Source of the DNA: a bacterium
GTDB taxonomy: Bacteria > Acidobacteriota > Blastocatellia > HR10
Assembly: GCA_041640655.1 (NCBI GenBank)
Contig: JBEPZV010000013.1
Span: 1 to 52,556 of the forward strand
Length of the DNA stretch: 52,556 bases
Direction of reading: 5' to 3'
The stretch's first letter is position 1. Every line of letters begins with the position of its first letter. Made by a program: the position numbers and the translations under genes. The notes beneath the pieces were generated by a model. It had not been told where the DNA came from. It did not search any database and saw only the letters and a program-made list of their open reading frames with translations. Shown here piece after piece: positions 1 through 8,400 of this stretch.

Positions 1-68
1 AGGGGGTATGGGGGTTATCACTTTCGCCCACCTAACCCATTGGACTTTCAGAACTAAACCCCACAGCT
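1..68 (+). promoter_or_regulatory. CRISPR leader (3' part, truncated by window edge)
   Basis: 68 nt without a repeat before repeat 1, longer than any spacer (36-43 nt) and less GC-rich than coding DNA; the repeat ends in ATTGCGAC on the + strand, the usual 3' end. Confidence 0.7.
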
Positions 69-1020
69 GTCGGAAACCAGGACTCGCTTTAAAGAGGATT
101 GCGACAATCAGCCCTTCTATCTGCTTCATGACAGCGTTGAAGTCGGAAACCAGGACTCGCTTTAAAGAGGATTGCGACCCCACAGCCCCAGCAATATCCG
201 GAGGCCGTGGGTTCTGTCGGAAACCAGGACTCGCTTTAAAGAGGATTGCGACCCATTGACCCACCCAAGCCCGGCTGTCCACCATTGTGGGTGTCGGAAA
301 CCAGGACTCGCTTTAAAGAGGATTGCGACACTCCTCCATTATCTCATCGGCGATATCCGAGGCTTCATGTGTCGGAAACCAGGACTCGCTTTAAAGAGGA
401 TTGCGACGCAATTAAAAGCCAGATGTTACCGTCCTGGTCACTCCAGTCGGAAACCAGGACTCGCTTTAAAGAGGATTGCGACCAGATATTGGCGACCGTG
501 CGCCCAAGGTGCTCAAGACGTGTCGGAAACCAGGACTCGCTTTAAAGAGGATTGCGACCCTTGTCAATTCAATCACGCGTCAAATTCGTTTGGCATAAGC
601 CGTCGGAAACCAGGACTCGCTTTAAAGAGGATTGCGACTCTGAGGCTTGCCCTGCCTCACTTGCTCCAAGTATACAGTCGGAAACCAGGACTCGCTTTAA
701 AGAGGATTGCGACATCCCGAATTCTCTGCACATCTTCCCCAAAGCCCCGCCAAATGTCGGAAACCAGGACTCGCTTTAAAGAGGATTGCGACTCAAGGCA
801 TCCAGTATCACTCGGTTACTATCCACCCATGGTCGGAAACCAGGACTCGCTTTAAAGAGGATTGCGACACAAGAAACGGCTCACAGTTTTTGAACCAAGC
901 TGCCGCGAGTCGGAAACCAGGACTCGCTTTAAAGAGGATTGCGACCCGTACCACCATGAAATTCTCACTTCGTAGGTCATTGCGTCGGAAACCAGGACTC
1001 GCTTTAAAGAGGATTGCGAC
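69..1020 (+). CRISPR. CRISPR array, 13 identical 37-bp repeats GTCGGAAACCAGGACTCGCTTTAAAGAGGATTGCGAC and 12 spacers of 36-43 bp
   Basis: Repeats start at 69, 142, 216, 293, 371, 446, 522, 602, 677, 756, 832, 909 and 984; spacers are unique. Confidence 0.99.
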
Positions 1021-1025
1021 GGCCG

Positions 1026-1490
1026 TCACTCCTTCCGTCGCGTGAGCGCGCGGCGGCGGAGATCGTGAAGCTTCCAGTAGTAGAAGTACTTCGACGGAGG
1101 AGCGGTGCGGAAGCGGAGCCGATCGAGGGCTTGCAACTCTTCCAGCGTGGCGGCGCCGGAGAGTTCCGGATCGGCCAGAAATTCGTGAAAGGCGCGATAG
1201 GGGGAGGAGAAAGCGGGCTTGAGCTGACGAGCGGGCGTGCGGCGCGGTGTGCCGCGGCCGGTGAAGAGCCAGTCCAGGGAGATCCCGGCGCGGACCAGAG
1301 CCAGGTAGAAGTCAGCCGAGGGAAGGCCGCGGCGTTCGATATGACTGAGGCGTTGCTGCGACAGCCCCAGGCGCTCGGCGAAGGCTTTCTGCGAGAGGGG
1401 AGCGCGAGCGCGACGCAACCGCTCGCGGACGGCCTTCACCTCCGGCGTCTGCTTCCGACGACGTGTGCGGTTTTGTCGGCGCTTCGGCAT
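1026..1490 (-). CDS. XRE-family helix-turn-helix transcriptional regulator with unassigned C-terminal domain (154 aa)
   Basis: RLRRARAPLSQKAFAERLGLSQQRLSHIERRGLPS...GISLDWLFTG is a Cro/cI HTH signature; ATG at 1490 follows a TATACT -10 box. Confidence 0.88.
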   Translation of the reverse strand: MPKRRQNRTRRRKQTPEVKAVRERLRRARAPLSQKAFAERLGLSQQRLSHIERRGLPSADFYLALVRAGISLDWLFTGRGTPRRTPARQLKPAFSSPYRAFHEFLADPELSGAATLEELQALDRLRFRTAPPSKYFYYWKLHDLRRRALTRRKE

Positions 1491-1498
1491 GAGCTGAG

Positions 1499-1504
1499 AG
1501 TATA
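1499..1504 (-). promoter_or_regulatory. -10 box (TATACT) of the XRE gene, probably leaderless
   Basis: TATACT lies 8 nt upstream of the ATG; no Shine-Dalgarno. Confidence 0.55.
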
Positions 1505-1683
1505 CCCGATCGGCGGAGATTTGGGAAGTGGGAAGATTTTGTTCCGCCAGGTTAGGATCAAAAGGATATCGAGCGGCCGCTGGACCTGATGTGGTGTGCC
1601 GTTCAGAGCCGGACGCCGGTCTTCTCGGTTGCGCTACGCGGACTTCCTGTGGCAGGAGGGATCTCGCCCCGCTCGCTCCGGGC

Positions 1684-1712
1684 TTGACATCGAGGCGGAG
1701 GATGTGGAAAAT
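1684..1712 (+). promoter_or_regulatory. Sigma70-type promoter for the cysteine operon leader
   Basis: TTGACA (1684-1689), 17-nt spacer, GAAAAT (1707-1712). Confidence 0.65.
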
Positions 1713-1811
1713 TTCTCGCCTTGAAATGCGCGCGGCCGGCAAGGTGAGAGGGTTGTGAGGCAGACGCTGGGCATCAACCGGAAGGTGAGAACCGGAGGCG
1801 AGGACCGCCGG

Positions 1812-1883
1812 ATGGCCATGATGTGTTGTTGTTGTCGGACGACGGGAGGCTCTCCGGCGGTGGTGCAGACGCTCGTGAGCTAG
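1812..1883 (+). CDS. Poly-Cys attenuator leader peptide MAMMCCCCRTTGGSPAVVQTLVS (23 aa)
   Basis: ATG GCC ATG ATG TGT TGT TGT TGT ... TAG; GAGGA SD-like motif upstream; directly precedes a terminator and the cysteine synthase gene. Confidence 0.88.
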   Translation: MAMMCCCCRTTGGSPAVVQTLVS

Positions 1884-1907
1884 GCCGCGCGAAGCGACAT
1901 CGAGATC

Positions 1908-1948
1908 AAAAAAACCCACTGCCGGAGAGATCGGCGGTGGGTTTTTTT
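1908..1948 (+). terminator. Intrinsic terminator of the attenuator
   Basis: AAAAAAACCCACTGCCG-GAGAGAT-CGGCGGTGGGTTTTTTT: GC-rich stem with one G-U pair, then 7 T. Confidence 0.92.
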
Positions 1949-1974
1949 ATGGCCGGCGACGAGGCGAGGCGCGC

Positions 1975-2979
1975 ATGAAGGGCATTCGAGGGGCGTGCGC
2001 GGAAGGAGCGTGGGCGACCTTCGGGCCTCGCGCGAGGATGGTGCGCGCGTGGGAGCGACCGGTGGACCTGTTGCAGCTTGTCGGGCGGACGCCGCTTCTG
2101 CGGCTGCGGCGGATCGCGCGCGAATTCGAGGGGGTGGAGATCTACGCGAAGGCGGAGTGGTACAACCCGGGGGGATCGGTGAAGGATCGCGCGGGGTTGT
2201 GGATCATTCAAGACGCGGAGGCCGCGGGGCGACTGACGCCGGAGAAGATCATCCTCGACGCGACGTCGGGCAATACGGGCATCGCCTATGCGTGGATCGC
2301 GCGGGTGAAGGGGTATCGGGTGACGCTCGCCATTCCGGCCAATGTCACGCCCGAGCGGAAGCGGATTTTGCGGGCCTTGGGGGCGGAGTTGCGCTTCACC
2401 GATCCGCGCGAGGGGTCGGACGGGGCGATTCGCGAGGCGCGACGTCTGGCGGCGGAGCATCCGGAGCTCTACTTCTATGCCGATCAGTACAACAATCCGG
2501 CCAATTGGCGCGCGCACTATGAGACGACGGCGGTGGAGATCTTCGAGCAGACGGAGGGGCGGATCACGCATTTCGTGGCCGGGTTGGGCACCAGCGGCAC
2601 GTTCGTGGGCGTCGGGCGCCGCTTGCGCGAGCTCTGTCCGGAGATTCGGTTGATCTCGGTGCAGCCGGATGCGCCGTTTCATGGGATCGAGGGGCTGAAG
2701 CACATGCCGACGGCTCTGCGGCCGGGCATCTATGACGACGCGCTGGCGGACATGAATCTGGAGATCCCGACCGAGGAGGCCTACGCGATGGTGCGACGCC
2801 TGGCGCGCGAGGAGGGGCTGCTGGTGGGCGTCTCCTCGGGAGCGGCGTTGGCCGCAGTGCTGCGCATCGCGCGGACGATTCGTCGTGGTGTCATCGTCAC
2901 GATCTTCCCCGACGGTGGGGACAAGTACTTGAGTGAGCGCTTCTGGGAGGAAGGGGGGGATGATTCGACTCACGATTGA
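1975..2979 (+). CDS. cysM: PLP-dependent cysteine synthase (CysM-type; start may be 2038)
   Basis: NPGGSVKDR PLP-lysine motif, DATSGNTG, GLGTSGT, GVSSGA; operon context. Confidence 0.88.
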   Translation: MKGIRGACAEGAWATFGPRARMVRAWERPVDLLQLVGRTPLLRLRRIAREFEGVEIYAKAEWYNPGGSVKDRAGLWIIQDAEAAGRLTPEKIILDATSGNTGIAYAWIARVKGYRVTLAIPANVTPERKRILRALGAELRFTDPREGSDGAIREARRLAAEHPELYFYADQYNNPANWRAHYETTAVEIFEQTEGRITHFVAGLGTSGTFVGVGRRLRELCPEIRLISVQPDAPFHGIEGLKHMPTALRPGIYDDALADMNLEIPTEEAYAMVRRLAREEGLLVGVSSGAALAAVLRIARTIRRGVIVTIFPDGGDKYLSERFWEEGGDDSTHD

Positions 2980-3379
2980 ACAGCTTGAGGCGATCAAGCG
3001 GCATGGGGAGCGCGCCTATCCTGAGGAGGGGTGCGGCGTGTTGCTCGGACACGTGGAGGGGGAGACGAAGGTCGTCGAGGAGATTCGTCCGACGCCGAAC
3101 GCGCGGCAGGACTCACCGCACAATCGCTATGCCATCGCCCCGGAGGAACTGCTGCGGCTCGAACGCGAGGCGCGCGCGCGCGGTCGTGAAGTCCTCGGCT
3201 TCTTCCATTCGCATCCGGATGCGGAGGCGCGCCCCTCATCGCACGATCTCGAACACGCGTGGCCGTGGTATTCCTATCTGATCATCTCGGTGCGAGCCGC
3301 GGTCTCCGAGAGCGTGCATTCCTGGGTCTTGCGCGAGGATCGTTCGCGGTTCGATCAGGAGGAGATTCTCATCGGGTGA
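2960..3379 (+). CDS. mec: JAB/MPN+ (M67) metallopeptidase, Mec-like CysO-cysteine peptidase
   Basis: PEEGCG ... FHSHPDAEARPSSHD JAMM motif. Confidence 0.9.
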   Translation: MIRLTIEQLEAIKRHGERAYPEEGCGVLLGHVEGETKVVEEIRPTPNARQDSPHNRYAIAPEELLRLEREARARGREVLGFFHSHPDAEARPSSHDLEHAWPWYSYLIISVRAAVSESVHSWVLREDRSRFDQEEILIG

Positions 3380-3435
3380 TGCTTCAACTGCGGGGCTTCC
3401 CGCATCGGGGGGGCTCCGGGGGAAAGGAGGGAGCG

Positions 3436-4905
3436 ATGTCGGTCACGATCTCACTTCCGACGGCCTTGCGGCGATATGCCGCCGAGAGCGATACGCTTCA
3501 GGTCGAAGGGCGAACGGTGCGCGAAGCGCTCGCCCGGTTGGTCGAGCGATACCCCGATTTGCAGCACCATCTCTTCACCGAGGATGGGCGGTTGCGCCAT
3601 TTCGTCAACGTGTACGTCAATGATGAGGACGTGCGGTACCTGCAGGAGCTGGAGACGCCGGTGAAGGAGGGGGATGAGATCACCATCGTCCCCTCGGTCG
3701 CGGGGGGGCGGGCGTCGGGAGCATCGGATGGTGAAGGGCTGGCGGCGATCGCCGAGCGCGCCGAGCGCGTGCGGCTCAGCCCGGAGGAGATCCTGCGCTA
3801 CAGCCGACACCTCATCATGCCGGAGGTGACCATGGAGGGGCAGCGTCGGCTCAAGGCGGCGCGGGTGCTGATCATCGGCGCGGGCGGTCTGGGGTCGCCT
3901 CTGGCCCTCTACTTGGCCGCCGCGGGCGTGGGGCGCATCGGGATCGTGGATTTCGATGTGGTGGATTTCACGAACCTCCAGCGGCAGGTCCTCTACACCA
4001 CGCACGACGTCGGTCAGCCCAAGTTGCAGAAGGCCAAGGAGCGGCTCCAGGCGATCAATCCCCACATTGAGATCGAGACCTATGAGACGCGGCTCACCTC
4101 GGCGAACGCGCTCGAGATTCTGCGGGACTACGATGTGATCGTGGACGGCACGGATAATTTCCCGACGCGCTATTTGGTCAACGATGCGTGTGTGCTGCTT
4201 GGGAAGCCCAACGTCTATGGGAGCATCTTTCGCTTCGAGGGACAGGCATCGGTCTTCTACGCGCGGCAGGGGCCGTGTTACCGCTGCCTCTATCCGGAGC
4301 CGCCGCCGCCCGGGCTCGTCCCGAGCTGCGCCGAGGGGGGCGTGCTCGGCGTATTGCCTGGGATCATCGGCGCGATTCAGGCCAACGAGACGATCAAGCT
4401 GATTCTGGGGCAGGGCGAGCCGCTCATTGGGCGGCTCTTGCTGTTGGACGCCTGGCGGATGCAGATCCGCACGGTGAAGGTGCGCAAGGACCCACAGTGC
4501 CCGATCTGCGGTGAGCGGCCGACGATCCGCGAGTTGATTGACTACGAAGAGTTCTGCGGCGTGATGCCGGAGCCGGTGCTCGCCGAAGAGCTGGAGATCA
4601 CGCCGCGCGAGCTGAAGGCGCGACTCGATCGGGGGGAGCCGCTCTTCCTGCTCGACGTTCGCGAGCCGCACGAATGGCAGATCGCGCATCTGCCGGGCGC
4701 GACGCTCATCCCCATGAACCGCATCCCCGCGCGCTTGCACGAGCTGCCGACGACGGACGAGATCGTCGTCTATTGCAAGACGGGAGGGCGAAGCGCGCAG
4801 GTGCTGCGGTTCCTCTACAGTGCGGGCTTCCGGCGGATCAAGAACCTGAAGGGGGGGATTGATCGCTGGGCCGTGGAGGTGGATCCGAGCGTGCCGCGGT
4901 ACTGA
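3436..4905 (+). CDS. moeB: Fusion of ThiS/MoaD (CysO-like) sulfur carrier, MoeB/E1 adenylyltransferase and rhodanese (MoeZ-like)
   Basis: N-terminal beta-grasp domain ending ITIVPSVAGG; GAGGLG, CYRC, CAEGG, CPIC; rhodanese YCKTGGRS; AAGGAGG SD before 3436. Confidence 0.92.
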   Translation: MSVTISLPTALRRYAAESDTLQVEGRTVREALARLVERYPDLQHHLFTEDGRLRHFVNVYVNDEDVRYLQELETPVKEGDEITIVPSVAGGRASGASDGEGLAAIAERAERVRLSPEEILRYSRHLIMPEVTMEGQRRLKAARVLIIGAGGLGSPLALYLAAAGVGRIGIVDFDVVDFTNLQRQVLYTTHDVGQPKLQKAKERLQAINPHIEIETYETRLTSANALEILRDYDVIVDGTDNFPTRYLVNDACVLLGKPNVYGSIFRFEGQASVFYARQGPCYRCLYPEPPPPGLVPSCAEGGVLGVLPGIIGAIQANETIKLILGQGEPLIGRLLLLDAWRMQIRTVKVRKDPQCPICGERPTIRELIDYEEFCGVMPEPVLAEELEITPRELKARLDRGEPLFLLDVREPHEWQIAHLPGATLIPMNRIPARLHELPTTDEIVVYCKTGGRSAQVLRFLYSAGFRRIKNLKGGIDRWAVEVDPSVPRY

Positions 4906-4915
4906 GGAGGTGGTC

Positions 4916-5416
4916 ATGAGGGCGATTGACGAGGTCGTGGAGGCCAACGCGGCTTACGCCGCGCAATTCGCATGGGGGGACTTATCGGCGCCGCCCACAC
5001 GGCGGCTGATCGTGCTCGCGTGCATGGACGCGCGAATCCTCGTCTCGCAGATATTGGGGCTGAAGCCAGGTGAGGCGCACGTCCTGCGCAATGCCGGCGG
5101 CATCGTGACTGAGGACGTCTTGCGCTCGCTGCTCATCTCCCATTATCTGTTGGGGACGCGGGAGTTCATGATCATCGCCCACACCGACTGCGGCATGATG
5201 ACCTTCACCGATGACGATCTCTTTCGGCGTCTTCGGCACGAGACGGGGACGGCCGTCGTGGCCCCGGCGCGCTTTTTCGCCTTCCGCGATCTGGAGGAGA
5301 ACGTGCGGGAGCAAGTGCAGAAGGTGCGCTCGCATCCGTGGGTTCCTGCCGCGCTCCTGGTGCGCGGGTTCATCTACGATGTGAAGACCGGACGATTGCG
5401 CGAAGTCTCCGCATGA
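4916..5416 (+). CDS. Beta-class carbonic anhydrase (short clade-D type; possible COS hydrolase)
   Basis: ACMDAR, RNAGG, HTDCG zinc motifs; GFIYDVKTG; GAGGAGG SD. Confidence 0.92.
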   Translation: MRAIDEVVEANAAYAAQFAWGDLSAPPTRRLIVLACMDARILVSQILGLKPGEAHVLRNAGGIVTEDVLRSLLISHYLLGTREFMIIAHTDCGMMTFTDDDLFRRLRHETGTAVVAPARFFAFRDLEENVREQVQKVRSHPWVPAALLVRGFIYDVKTGRLREVSA

Positions 5417-5420
5417 GGGC

Positions 5421-5456
5421 GGTGGGAGGGGCGAGCTCGTGATCGCCCCTCCCGCT
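5421..5456. terminator. Stem-loop between convergent genes
   Basis: GGGAGGGGCGA (5424-5434) pairs with TCGCCCCTCCC (5443-5453); no strong U tract. Confidence 0.55.
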
Positions 5457-5468
5457 GATCTCCCCTTC

Positions 5469-8400
5469 TCAGAAGGAGAGCTTCAGGCCAAATTGGATGA
5501 TGCGCGGATCGCGCGCGCTGCTGACGGACCCGAAGCCCGCGACGCCCAGGGTCGCGCTCGGCGCCCCCAATTGAGTGTGATTGAAGGCGTTGAAGAATTC
5601 CGCCCGGAATTGCACGCGCACCTGCTCGGTCAGGGCGAAGTTCTTCATCAGGCTGATGTCCCAATTGTTGACGCCCGCGGCGCGGATGATGTTACGCCCG
5701 GCCGTCCCGAAGGTCGTGGTCGCCCGGCGGAAGGCATCCGTATTGAACCAGCGCGCGGGGGTACGTTGACCTTTCGGCAGACGCGGATTCGCGATCAGGT
5801 CAGGTCGCGTGGAGCCTCCGGCCGGGAATGGTCCGACCAGCAGCGTGTCTCCGGACTGGAAGACGGTGAAGGGCAGGCCGCTCCAGAAGGTCGTGATGCC
5901 GGAGAGTTGCCATCCGCCGAAGACGGCGCGCACGGCCGGATGGGCTTCCCGCAAGGTGGGGAGCTCCCAGATGTAGTTGATCGTCAGCACGTGCTGGCGC
6001 TGGAACGAGGAGGGCGCGCGCTCGGCGCGGATGTTGAGCGAGTCCTGCGGCGCATCCGAGCGATCCGTCGAAGCGGTGGTCATGTTCTTCCCCCAGGTGT
6101 AGACCCCGCCGATGGAGAAGCCGCGACTCATCCGCTTCTGGATGGACATCTGCAGCGAGTGGTAGCGCGAGATGCCCGTCGTCTGTCGCTCCTGGATCAG
6201 GGCGTATCCGAGATAGGGGCGCACGCGATTGATGACGCCGCCGGCCTGATTGGCGGCCAGGGGACGCGGCTGGTTGATGTTGATGAGGCGGAGCAGATTG
6301 TTGCCGCCGGAGCCCACGTAGCCGATCTCAAAGAGCGTCTGCGGGAAGAGCTCGCGCTGATAGCTCAGGTTCCACTGCTGCATGGTCGGCGCGCGGAAGG
6401 GGAAGCCCGTCGTGAGCAAGCTGATGGGCAGGATGGTCTCGCGCGTGACGCCGGCCGCCGGGTTGCTGAGCAGCGCATTGTCAATGGTCACACGGGTGTT
6501 CGCCTTGGGATTCACGAACCCGTTCTGCAGGACGATCCCCGTCAGCGAGCGATCGTAGTAGATGCCGTAGCCGCCGCGCAGAACGCTCTTTCCGCGTCCG
6601 GACGGATCCCAGGCGAAGCCGAAGCGCGGGCCGATGAGGTCGAAATTATTCTCCTGCACGCGTCGCCCGAAGGGGGAATTCTCTCCGGAGAAGATCATCC
6701 CGTTGAAGCGATCGCCGCTGCCGGGGATGATGAAGCCGCGCGCGTCCAGTTGCACCGCGCGCTCCGGGCGGTAGAGATCGGGCCGGAAGGTCTGCAGGAG
6801 ATTGTTCTTCTCCACCGGGTTGCCGAACATGGAGAACCGAACGCCGAAGTCGAGCGTGAGGTTCGGGCGCACTTTCCAGCTGTCTTGCGCGTAAAACTCG
6901 TAGGTGTTGTACCGGAGGTCCAGGTTCACATCCACCTGATCCTCCGTGTAGCTGGAGGCGAGGCCGAGCAGGAAGTCCGCGAAGGCGTTCCCCGTGAAGC
7001 GGCCATCGAAGGTGAACGAGCCATCCACAGGATTGCCGCCGGAATTCTCGAACTTCCGCTCCGTCGCGATGAACGCTCCCGTCTTGAACGTGTGCTTCCC
7101 CGTCGTGTAGGTGAAGTTGTAGGTGAACGAATGGCTCGGGTTCCCGTTCCGATATGGCCCGAAGAAGCTGATGCCGGCGAAGCCGGAGATGGAGATATTG
7201 GGCACCAGGTCGCGATTGCCCGGGAAGATCTCGGGGATTCTCAAGCCCAGTGCGCTGCGCTTGCCGCGCCCGATGATATTGCTGATGATCTGGTTGCGGG
7301 AGAAATCATAGGCGAACTCGCTCACGGCGCGCGTCCCGAGGACATGCGTGGCCGCCACTTTGAAATTGACAGCGGGCGTATCGGTGGCCGTCGTCGCGAC
7401 GTCCGGCAGCAGGATGTTGTTGAACAGTCCGCCCGGCTCGACGCGCGAGAAGATGTCTCGAATATAGCGGGCCCACACGCGGAAATTGGGGGTGAAGATA
7501 TGGTCCACGCGCCACAACTCCTGACGGAAGTTGACGGGCTGAGGCAGGGTGGGGCGGTAGAAGCGCGGATCGCCTTCGGCGGCCGCGTTGGGGAGCGGGA
7601 AGAGCCGCTCGACGATGATCCGGGCGTTCGGATCAATGCGATCCGGCGGGATGCTGTTGCCCGGGAACGGTTGTCCCGTCTGCGGATCTCGGATGGCGGG
7701 GAATCCCGAGAAGTCCCCCCGGCGCATGGCGGCCGTCGGCACGGTCGTGCGCGGCGTCGTGAACTCCCGAATGCGGCGGAACTCCTGCGAGAAGAAGAAG
7801 AAGGTCTTCTCTCGCTGCCTGTTGTACCCGAAGAGCGTGACCGGCCCGCCGATGTTCCATCCGAAATTGTTGTACCGCAGCGGCGGCTTCAGGCTCGTTC
7901 GTCCCACAATGGGCGGCGTGAAGCGAAACGGCTCGCGCGCGGTGATGACATCGTTGCGCAGGAAGTGATAGGCGCCGCCGTGAAACTCGCGCGTCCCCGA
8001 CTTGGTGATGATATTCACCACGCCCCCGGCGTTGCGGCCGAACTCGGCGCTGTAGACGTTGGTGAGGATGCGGAATTCGGCCACCGCATCCACGCTCGGG
8101 TAGTTGAAGAGTGTCAGGTTCGATCCCGTGTCCACGTTGCGCCCGCCGTCGATGAGCCAGTTGATGCCGCTTGTGCGACTCCCGCTGACGGAGATCGAGA
8201 TCACGCTGAGTCCGCCGAAGCCCACTTGACTCGGCAATGCCGAGGAGACGCCCGGCACGAGATAGGTCAACTGCACGAAATTTCGGTTATTCAACGGCAG
8301 CTCGGTCATCTGTCGCCCGGAGACCAAGCCGCTGATGGTGGGACTCTGTTGGACGAGGACTTCTTCCGCCGTGACGGTCACCGTCTCCTGGATCTCGCCC

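Follow-up and report, generated by a model that had tools for sequence, protein, structure and literature searches.

The leader segments of classical attenuators are numbered 1 to 4. Such attenuators, among them E. coli trp and Salmonella his (summarised in 10.1101/834739 and PMC4007540), combine a short leader ORF, tandem cognate codons, an antiterminator competing with an intrinsic terminator, and a downstream biosynthetic operon. Canestrari et al. (10.1101/834739) presented cysteine uORF attenuation as previously undescribed and proved a translational, leaderless form in mycobacteria. The mycobacterial Ms5788A and Rv0815A (10.1101/834739, PMC13096801, PMC1262725) are poly-Cys short ORFs ahead of cysteine genes with a proven response to cysteine; they are leaderless, a hidden SD places the control at the level of translation, and termination was excluded by the authors. 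Seliverstov et al. (PMC1262725) reported Cys leaders of Actinobacteria without terminator hairpins; the initial annotation of the DNA studied here had treated poly-Cys short-ORF control in mycobacteria and actinobacteria as known, and it is indeed documented (10.1101/834739, PMC1262725). In Deinococcus deserti, a leaderless Cys-codon leader of ten residues, two of them Cys, precedes cysS, and transcription attenuation was proposed (PMC4007540).

The nearest precedent is uORFC-8-2 of Brewer et al. 2021 (PMC8632094), predicted in 145 Rhodobacterales examples, in which a Cys uORF with two tandem Cys codons, UGC being dominant, and an intrinsic terminator lie before cysS, the first stem contains the Cys codons and read-through is proposed upon stalling. 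This precedent limits the novelty of the design that joins a Cys uORF to a terminator. No further terminator-type Cys case appears in the available text of PMC2965389, PMC4833913, PMC13236596 and PMC13096801; within these sources, cysteine leader-ORF control is proven as a mycobacterial translational switch and predicted as a terminator switch for cysS only. The initial annotation knew of no description of an element like the present one. Our literature search found no Cys uORF with a terminator described for Acidobacteriota, which does not establish its absence from print, and the claim of novelty has to yield to the Rhodobacterales cysS prediction as far as the general design is concerned (PMC8632094).

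The window analysed here is a whole stretch of 52,556 nucleotides from an acidobacterium, and the element under study lies ahead of a cysM-like gene. We consider it highly probable that this leader is a trp-type ribosome-mediated transcription attenuator, sensing charged tRNA-Cys and gating the cysM-mec-cysO/moeZ operon. The reading as a Cys attenuator of the trp/his/leu type was already that of the initial annotation. It draws support from the conservation of the leader, its compensatory changes, its spacing and its codon bias, and from the way in which the leader amino acid matches the pathway encoded downstream. The leader comprises the following features:

1684..1712, + strand, sigma-70-type promoter TTGACA-17-GAAAAT, predicted transcription start near 1719
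1729..1737, + strand, 5' arm of outer helix P0, pairing with 1883-1891 over a perfect 9 bp
1755..1883, + strand, long form of the leader ORF from an in-frame GTG, 42 codons
1804..1812, + strand, segment 1, which captures segment 2 (anti-antiterminator)
1812..1883, + strand, short leader ORF, 23 codons, MAMMCCCC, SD-like pairing -7.2 kcal/mol
1824..1835, + strand, four sensing codons, each TGT
1850..1863, + strand, segment 2, 5' strand of the antiterminator, 14 nt past the last Cys codon
1883..1891, + strand, 3' arm of P0, right at the leader stop codon
1914..1929, + strand, segment 3, 5' arm and loop of the terminator and 3' strand of the antiterminator
1932..1948, + strand, segment 4 and U7 tract of the intrinsic terminator

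The promoter, the 23-codon ORF with its four Cys codons and the three helices with their T run had all been annotated initially, and each was recovered exactly where it had been placed. The promoter-like site is one of 2 in positions 1200-2400, where 0.1 would be expected, and TTGACA, which served as anchor, stands 224-287 nt upstream of the end of the U run in 20/20 leaders examined. The short ORF translates as MAMMCCCCRTTGGSPAVVQTLVS, followed by its stop codon. Helix 1:2 (1804-1812/1853-1861) is Watson-Crick in 9/9 pairs, helix 2:3 (1850-1863/1916-1929) has 14 pairs including one G-U, and helix 3:4 (1914-1924/1932-1942) has 11 pairs including one G-U, with T7 at 1942-1948. The fold of the leader region gives a z of -3.19, and the 2:3 duplex, at -30.7 kcal/mol, is stronger than in 300/300 shuffles. 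A simple terminator scan missed the terminator hairpin, and we take the pairing of T7 with the A7 run 5' of the stem (1908-1914) to have hidden the U tail from it. Among 207 terminator-like sites of this genome, a CCC leader is found at one, namely that of cysM.

We infer the course of translation, stalling, folding and termination from this arrangement, and it would run as follows. The ribosome would load at ATG 1812, at GTG 1755 or at both. When Cys-tRNA is short, it would stall on the TGT run and cover or block segment 1, while segment 2, lying just past its leading edge, would pair with segment 3 as this emerges; the 14-bp helix 2:3 would take in the terminator loop, no terminator would form and RNA polymerase would read into cysM. 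When cysteine is ample, the ribosome would pass over segment 2 to the stop codon, and behind it segment 1 would capture segment 2 before segment 3 exists, about 30 nt later; P0 would close upon release of the ribosome, and helix 3:4 with U7 would terminate transcription near 1948. As judged from sequence, the operon is thus very probably switched on by cysteine shortage.

The following parts of a classical attenuator can be recognized at the locus: (i) a short leader ORF bearing a run of codons for a single amino acid, ahead of genes assigned at family level to cysteine synthesis; (ii) an intrinsic terminator between the leader and the first gene; (iii) an antiterminator exclusive of that terminator, with its 5' strand just past the stalled ribosome; and (iv) a 1:2 helix that would remove segment 2 when there is no stall, weaker against shuffles than 2:3. 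Unlike in classical trp and his, the amino acid sensed would be cysteine, segment 1 precedes the sensing codons (it lies on their 5' side), segment 2 is wholly within the ORF, two in-frame starts are conserved, and P0 links the 5' end to the stop codon (10.1101/834739, PMC4007540). Compared with uORFC-8-2, which is defined by its position upstream of cysS in Rhodobacterales, the present leader precedes cysM in an acidobacterium, its relatives stand before biosynthetic and sulfur genes, and they hold 3-8 Cys codons with UGU dominant (PMC8632094). In contrast to the mycobacterial ORFs, the candidate starts lie about 35 nt (GTG 1755) and 95 nt (ATG 1812) past the predicted transcription start and the terminator is U-tailed (10.1101/834739, PMC13096801, PMC1262725). 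No in-frame start coincides with the predicted transcription start site, at the transcript 5' end where the leaderless mycobacterial ORFs begin, and the distance from the 5' arm of P0 to the Cys run varies modulo 3. A leaderless start from ATG 1726 was considered and rejected, this ATG being in a different frame and not conserved among relatives.

The initial annotation had the leader start at ATG 1812 behind an SD, and had overlooked that the Cys frame is open from GTG 1755. The better SD score of ATG 1812 (-7.2 against -4.6 kcal/mol for GTG 1755, with a standard anti-SD sequence) speaks for that assignment, and the ATG 1812-type start is the stronger in 11/14 leaders. Against it, this ATG, present in 14/15 genus-level leaders, is absent from the remaining 5/19, whereas an open frame with an upstream start is found in 19/19 relatives. 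At the family level, 16/16 leaders have an ATG or GTG in frame no more than 22 nt past the 5' arm of P0, with no stop before the Cys run. The other frames of the 19 leaders are interrupted by stops, the +1 frame in 19/19 (partly from ATG-A itself) and the +2 frame in 15/19. Initiation may occur at either codon or at both. In three leaders (L009, L010 and L015), the predicted transcription start site and the first leader ATG are overlapped by an imperfect inverted repeat (9+4+9 nt), which could be a repressor site.

The outer helix P0, also overlooked initially, connects the 5' part of the leader with the stop codon. Column conservation is 0.96 and 0.93 in its two arms and 0.60-0.72 in the flanks. 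P0 is strong in 12/15 genus-level leaders (equalled by at most 5/300 shuffles) and weak or absent in 4 more distant ones. It shows little covariation, so that its support is that of conservation.

The initial annotation had pointed to the upstream regions of cysM homologues as the place to look for poly-Cys short ORFs, and they are indeed found there. A cysM orthologue is present in 11/12 genomes of the order, with a Cys-rich leader and a terminator before it in 11/11; in the twelfth genome, such leaders stand upstream of cysK and cysH. When metagenome loci were selected on nothing but the terminator sequence, 9/9 (one being a duplicate) proved to carry cysM behind a CCC leader.

Compensatory changes, which the initial annotation had proposed to look for, were found in alignment A1, which holds 19 distinct leaders. 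In antiterminator 2:3, 93.6% of 265 cells are paired and 5/14 pairs show a two-sided change, a result reached by 0/500 shuffles; these changes stem from three distant sequences and are therefore few events, and two of the five columns are possibly alignment offsets. For 1:2, 3:4 and P0 combined, 90.2% of 564 cells are paired and 13/30 pairs show two-sided changes, the count for 1:2 being inflated by the misalignment of segment 1 in four distant leaders. One two-sided change in segment 1, from G-C to A-U, was traced in L007. In terminator 3:4, 99% of the cells are paired, with two-sided changes in 4/11 pairs. When no alignment is used, the 2:3 duplex is at or beyond 299/300 shuffles in 19/19 leaders, and helix 1:2, much weaker, is equalled by 0-75 of 300. 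The leader stop stands 28-36 nt before segment 3 in 19/19, despite differing leader lengths.

To follow the leader beyond cysM, covariance model R1 was built from 15 leaders and used to search 151 genomes of the class at E <= 0.001. Matches were obtained in 34/151 genomes, in 42 rows. Training sites account for 11 rows in their own orientation and for 3 more in reverse; the other 28 are 23 Cys leaders, 2 His leaders, 1 Trp leader, and one His and one Cys leader read on the reverse strand. Since R1 includes the Cys run, the independent evidence is the downstream gene. Behind the 23 Cys leaders, this gene is cobA/cysG (16), cysK (1), cysH (1), nitrite/sulfite reductase (1), DUF1684 (2), hemerythrin followed by a cobA/cysG-like gene (1) and a cysH-like gene at 470 nt, read by eye (1).

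A pattern of the terminator stem, which carries no codon information and was written after Cys, His and Trp examples were known, gave 34 distinct sites in 28/151 class genomes, the reversed control giving none. A mechanical rule called 23 of them Cys, 8 His, 2 Trp and 1 Asn, two calls being in a wrong frame or start; the same rule passes 6/207 generic terminator-like sites of this genome. After inspection, 34/34 sites proved to be leaders, for Cys (24), His (8) and Trp (2). The sites include kin and hence are not independent; 12 of them were new, and 12/12 fit. Of the Cys leaders, 7 precede cysM, 1 cysH, 1 nitrite/sulfite reductase, 13 cobA/cysG (one truncated at a contig end and assigned by eye) and 2 peroxiredoxin, which places 22/24 before cysteine or sulfur genes. 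The His-rich leaders have hisZ downstream in 8/8 cases (L147, L170, L172, L174, L184, L185, L192 and L193) and the Trp-rich ones, WYWW and WCWW, DAHP synthase in 2/2 (L137 and L191).

An A run followed by CCC...GGG and a U run is a common form of terminator. The shared stem could therefore be convergent. We hold in even balance the proposal that the terminator stem is a single ancestral Blastocatellia chassis, re-specified between Cys, His and Trp by exchange of codons and spread to at least 5 kinds of sulfur genes, and that this genus acquired both an outer helix to lock the off state and a second in-frame start, through which a queued ribosome can mask segment 1.

Several side observations belong to this family. 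Cys leaders were seen before DUF1684 (2), peroxiredoxin (2), hemerythrin and an exported CxxC protein (L134, L156, L166, L190, L136 and L145, the last on the - strand), which suggests that these proteins are linked to sulfur or thiol supply. In L153 (G007:C58:3800-8800), two Cys attenuators lie 2.2 kb apart within a single sulfur cluster. The first stands ahead of cysH-tauE-like genes, with more U-run hairpins between it and cysH, and the second ahead of the reductase. Model R1 against 94 cysM loci outside the order gave a best E of 0.033, within no leader examined, so that no member of this leader family was detected upstream of those cysM genes. Seven other loci (L088, L099, L101, L102, L105, L112 and L113; Anaerolineae, Thermoanaerobaculia and others) have a Cys-run frame, a hairpin and a U run before cysM; they are unmatched by R1 and are probably separate families. 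In seven more (L021, L022, L023, L025, L026, L057 and L097; other Blastocatellia or Acidobacteriota), a Cys-run frame overlaps the cysM start out of frame with no terminator, possibly for translational control.

The peroxiredoxins behind two of the 24 Cys leaders, and DUF1684 or the CxxC protein behind others, count against plain control of biosynthesis. Together with the hemerythrin, they also lend some weight to the idea that the switch is real and answers to another signal, the Cys-rich nascent peptide sensing oxidation, metal or thiol state, or the leader reporting a general slowing of translation. The same can be said of the long frame and of P0, neither of which a plain attenuator model requires. 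We regard this idea as quite improbable on the following evidence. The last Cys codon is 11-17 nt from segment 2 in 19/19 leaders, despite differing leader lengths, which places the Cys run at the decoding-site position and not up the exit tunnel. The peptide beyond the Cys run is not conserved. TGT is strongly preferred in the leaders, accounting for 73/79 Cys codons, when the long ORFs of the genome have 898 TGT to 2554 TGC. Finally, the same terminator stands behind His runs at hisZ and behind Trp runs at DAHP synthase. These data are in agreement with a ribosome that senses charged tRNA-Cys through its codons.

The way in which that ribosome would act was considered by folding. The initial annotation held that a ribosome stalled on the Cys codons blocks 1:2 and leaves segment 2 free. 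The second part is borne out by the 14 nt between the last Cys codon and segment 2; the first is incomplete, as a ribosome on the last Cys codon alone would leave segment 1 uncovered. With 6 nt of segment 4 inside the polymerase, 16/19 leaders fold into 2:3 when the ribosome covers the first Cys codon, and 12/19 form the terminator as naked RNA. When the ribosome is placed on the last Cys codon instead, 2:3 is obtained in 8/19, or in 14/19 with a second ribosome queued behind. Masked folding, proposed as a check by the initial annotation, in this way reproduces the stall side for a ribosome on the first Cys codon but not the run-through side, a footprint at the stop codon still leaving 2:3 prevailing in 13/19 at equilibrium. 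Equilibrium folding was accordingly rejected as proof of the off state, failing as it does to reproduce termination at cysteine sufficiency, and since it does not separate the states cleanly, the switch must be kinetic. Two results fit with a kinetic switch. With the ribosome placed at the stop, segment 2 is already engaged with upstream sequence in 16/19 leaders at a stage when segment 3 has yet to be transcribed. In addition, conversion of 2:3 into 3:4 has to cross a barrier of 13.6-22.2 kcal/mol.

Once segment 4 has fully emerged, the terminator prevails at equilibrium in 16-18/19 leaders whatever the mask. This is what would be expected of a constitutive or leaky terminator placed after a small RNA or peptide gene, the operon then being driven by basal read-through or by another promoter, and the A7 run 5' of the stem is likewise of the kind seen in two-way terminators. 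Such an arrangement is very improbable: the + strand of positions 1200-2400 offers no further promoter-like site, the hairpin does not mark the end of a convergent gene, segments 2 and 3 co-vary, and the leader amino acid follows the downstream pathway. A riboswitch, T-box or protein-bound leader with 2:3/3:4 as expression platform and an incidental ORF is scarcely credible, even though P0 and 1:2 close a multi-branch structure in naked RNA, for an Rfam scan of window positions 1-6000 gave no family above chance (best E 1.6) and no T-box or SAM riboswitch match, conservation inside the multiloop is low (0.60) except at the helix arms and the Cys codons, and the frame is open in 19/19.

The attenuator reading is in agreement with the genes that it would control. 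The cysteine synthase that the initial annotation placed shortly after the T run is a CysM frame from ATG 1975, and it is followed by three further genes:

1975..2979, + strand, cysteine synthase family PLP enzyme (CysM-like), PALP domain, ATG 1975
2960..3379, + strand, Mec-like JAB-domain peptidase, Prok-JAB 6.3e-26
3436..4905, + strand, CysO-like ThiS carrier fused to a MoeZ-type ThiF-rhodanese enzyme, domains ThiS, ThiF and Rhodanese
4916..5416, + strand, beta-carbonic-anhydrase-like gene, Pro_CA

The best NCBIfam model for CysM, TIGR01138 cysM, scores 367.5 bits, under its cut-off of 394.2, which makes the assignment one at family level; the closest relatives, with 87-95% identity, are from Blastocatellia and from the bacteria HR08/HR10. 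The beta-carbonic-anhydrase-like gene is probably the last of the operon, and a hairpin without U run (-38.3 kcal/mol) lies at 5415-5467. Judged from their predicted domains, the operon genes are the set of the CysO/MoeZ route to cysteine, in which we take CysM and Mec to have their usual roles. The CysO/MoeZR cysteine pathway is known from M. tuberculosis (PMC3227635), with which this regulated operon shares CysM-, Mec-, CysO- and MoeZ-like domains; in contrast to that system, CysO is fused to MoeZ here. A VAGG motif is internal to the fusion, at the end of the ThiS part, and the adjacent JAB peptidase would need to release the carrier.

No cysE above its cut-off is found in this genome (89.8% complete), so that the cysM-mec-cysO/moeZ operon may be its main cysteine route. 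The cysS gene is on another contig, and cysH apparently lies behind a cobA/cysG-like gene whose start runs off a contig end. On reading, no attenuator leader was seen before the hisZ/hisS-like, the two DAHP synthase and the second cysteine-synthase-like genes of this genome, where the shared terminator stem occurs a single time. Elsewhere in the window, an XRE-type helix-turn-helix gene (1490-1026, - strand) is divergent from the leader and nearly leaderless, its promoter-like site (1527-1499) ending 9 nt upstream of the ATG. A CRISPR-like array at 69-1020, at the contig start, has 13 copies of a 37-nt repeat at a spacing of 73-80 nt, with no cas gene among the ORFs scanned.

The locus thus offers a complete and conserved terminator-type Cys leader on a biosynthetic operon, which at about 270 bp is short enough for testing in a laboratory host. 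If the reading of a common chassis is true, the family would be a natural series for testing the change of ligand in attenuators, and the leader would be the first tested Cys attenuator using intrinsic termination on a biosynthetic operon; with a stem common to Cys, His and Trp leaders, it becomes possible to test how attenuator specificity arose. In Blastocatellia, the leader marks a putative cysteine regulon of cysM, cysK, cysH, nitrite/sulfite reductase and cobA/cysG, which suggests that DUF1684, a peroxiredoxin and a hemerythrin, found behind the same leader, are also connected with sulfur.
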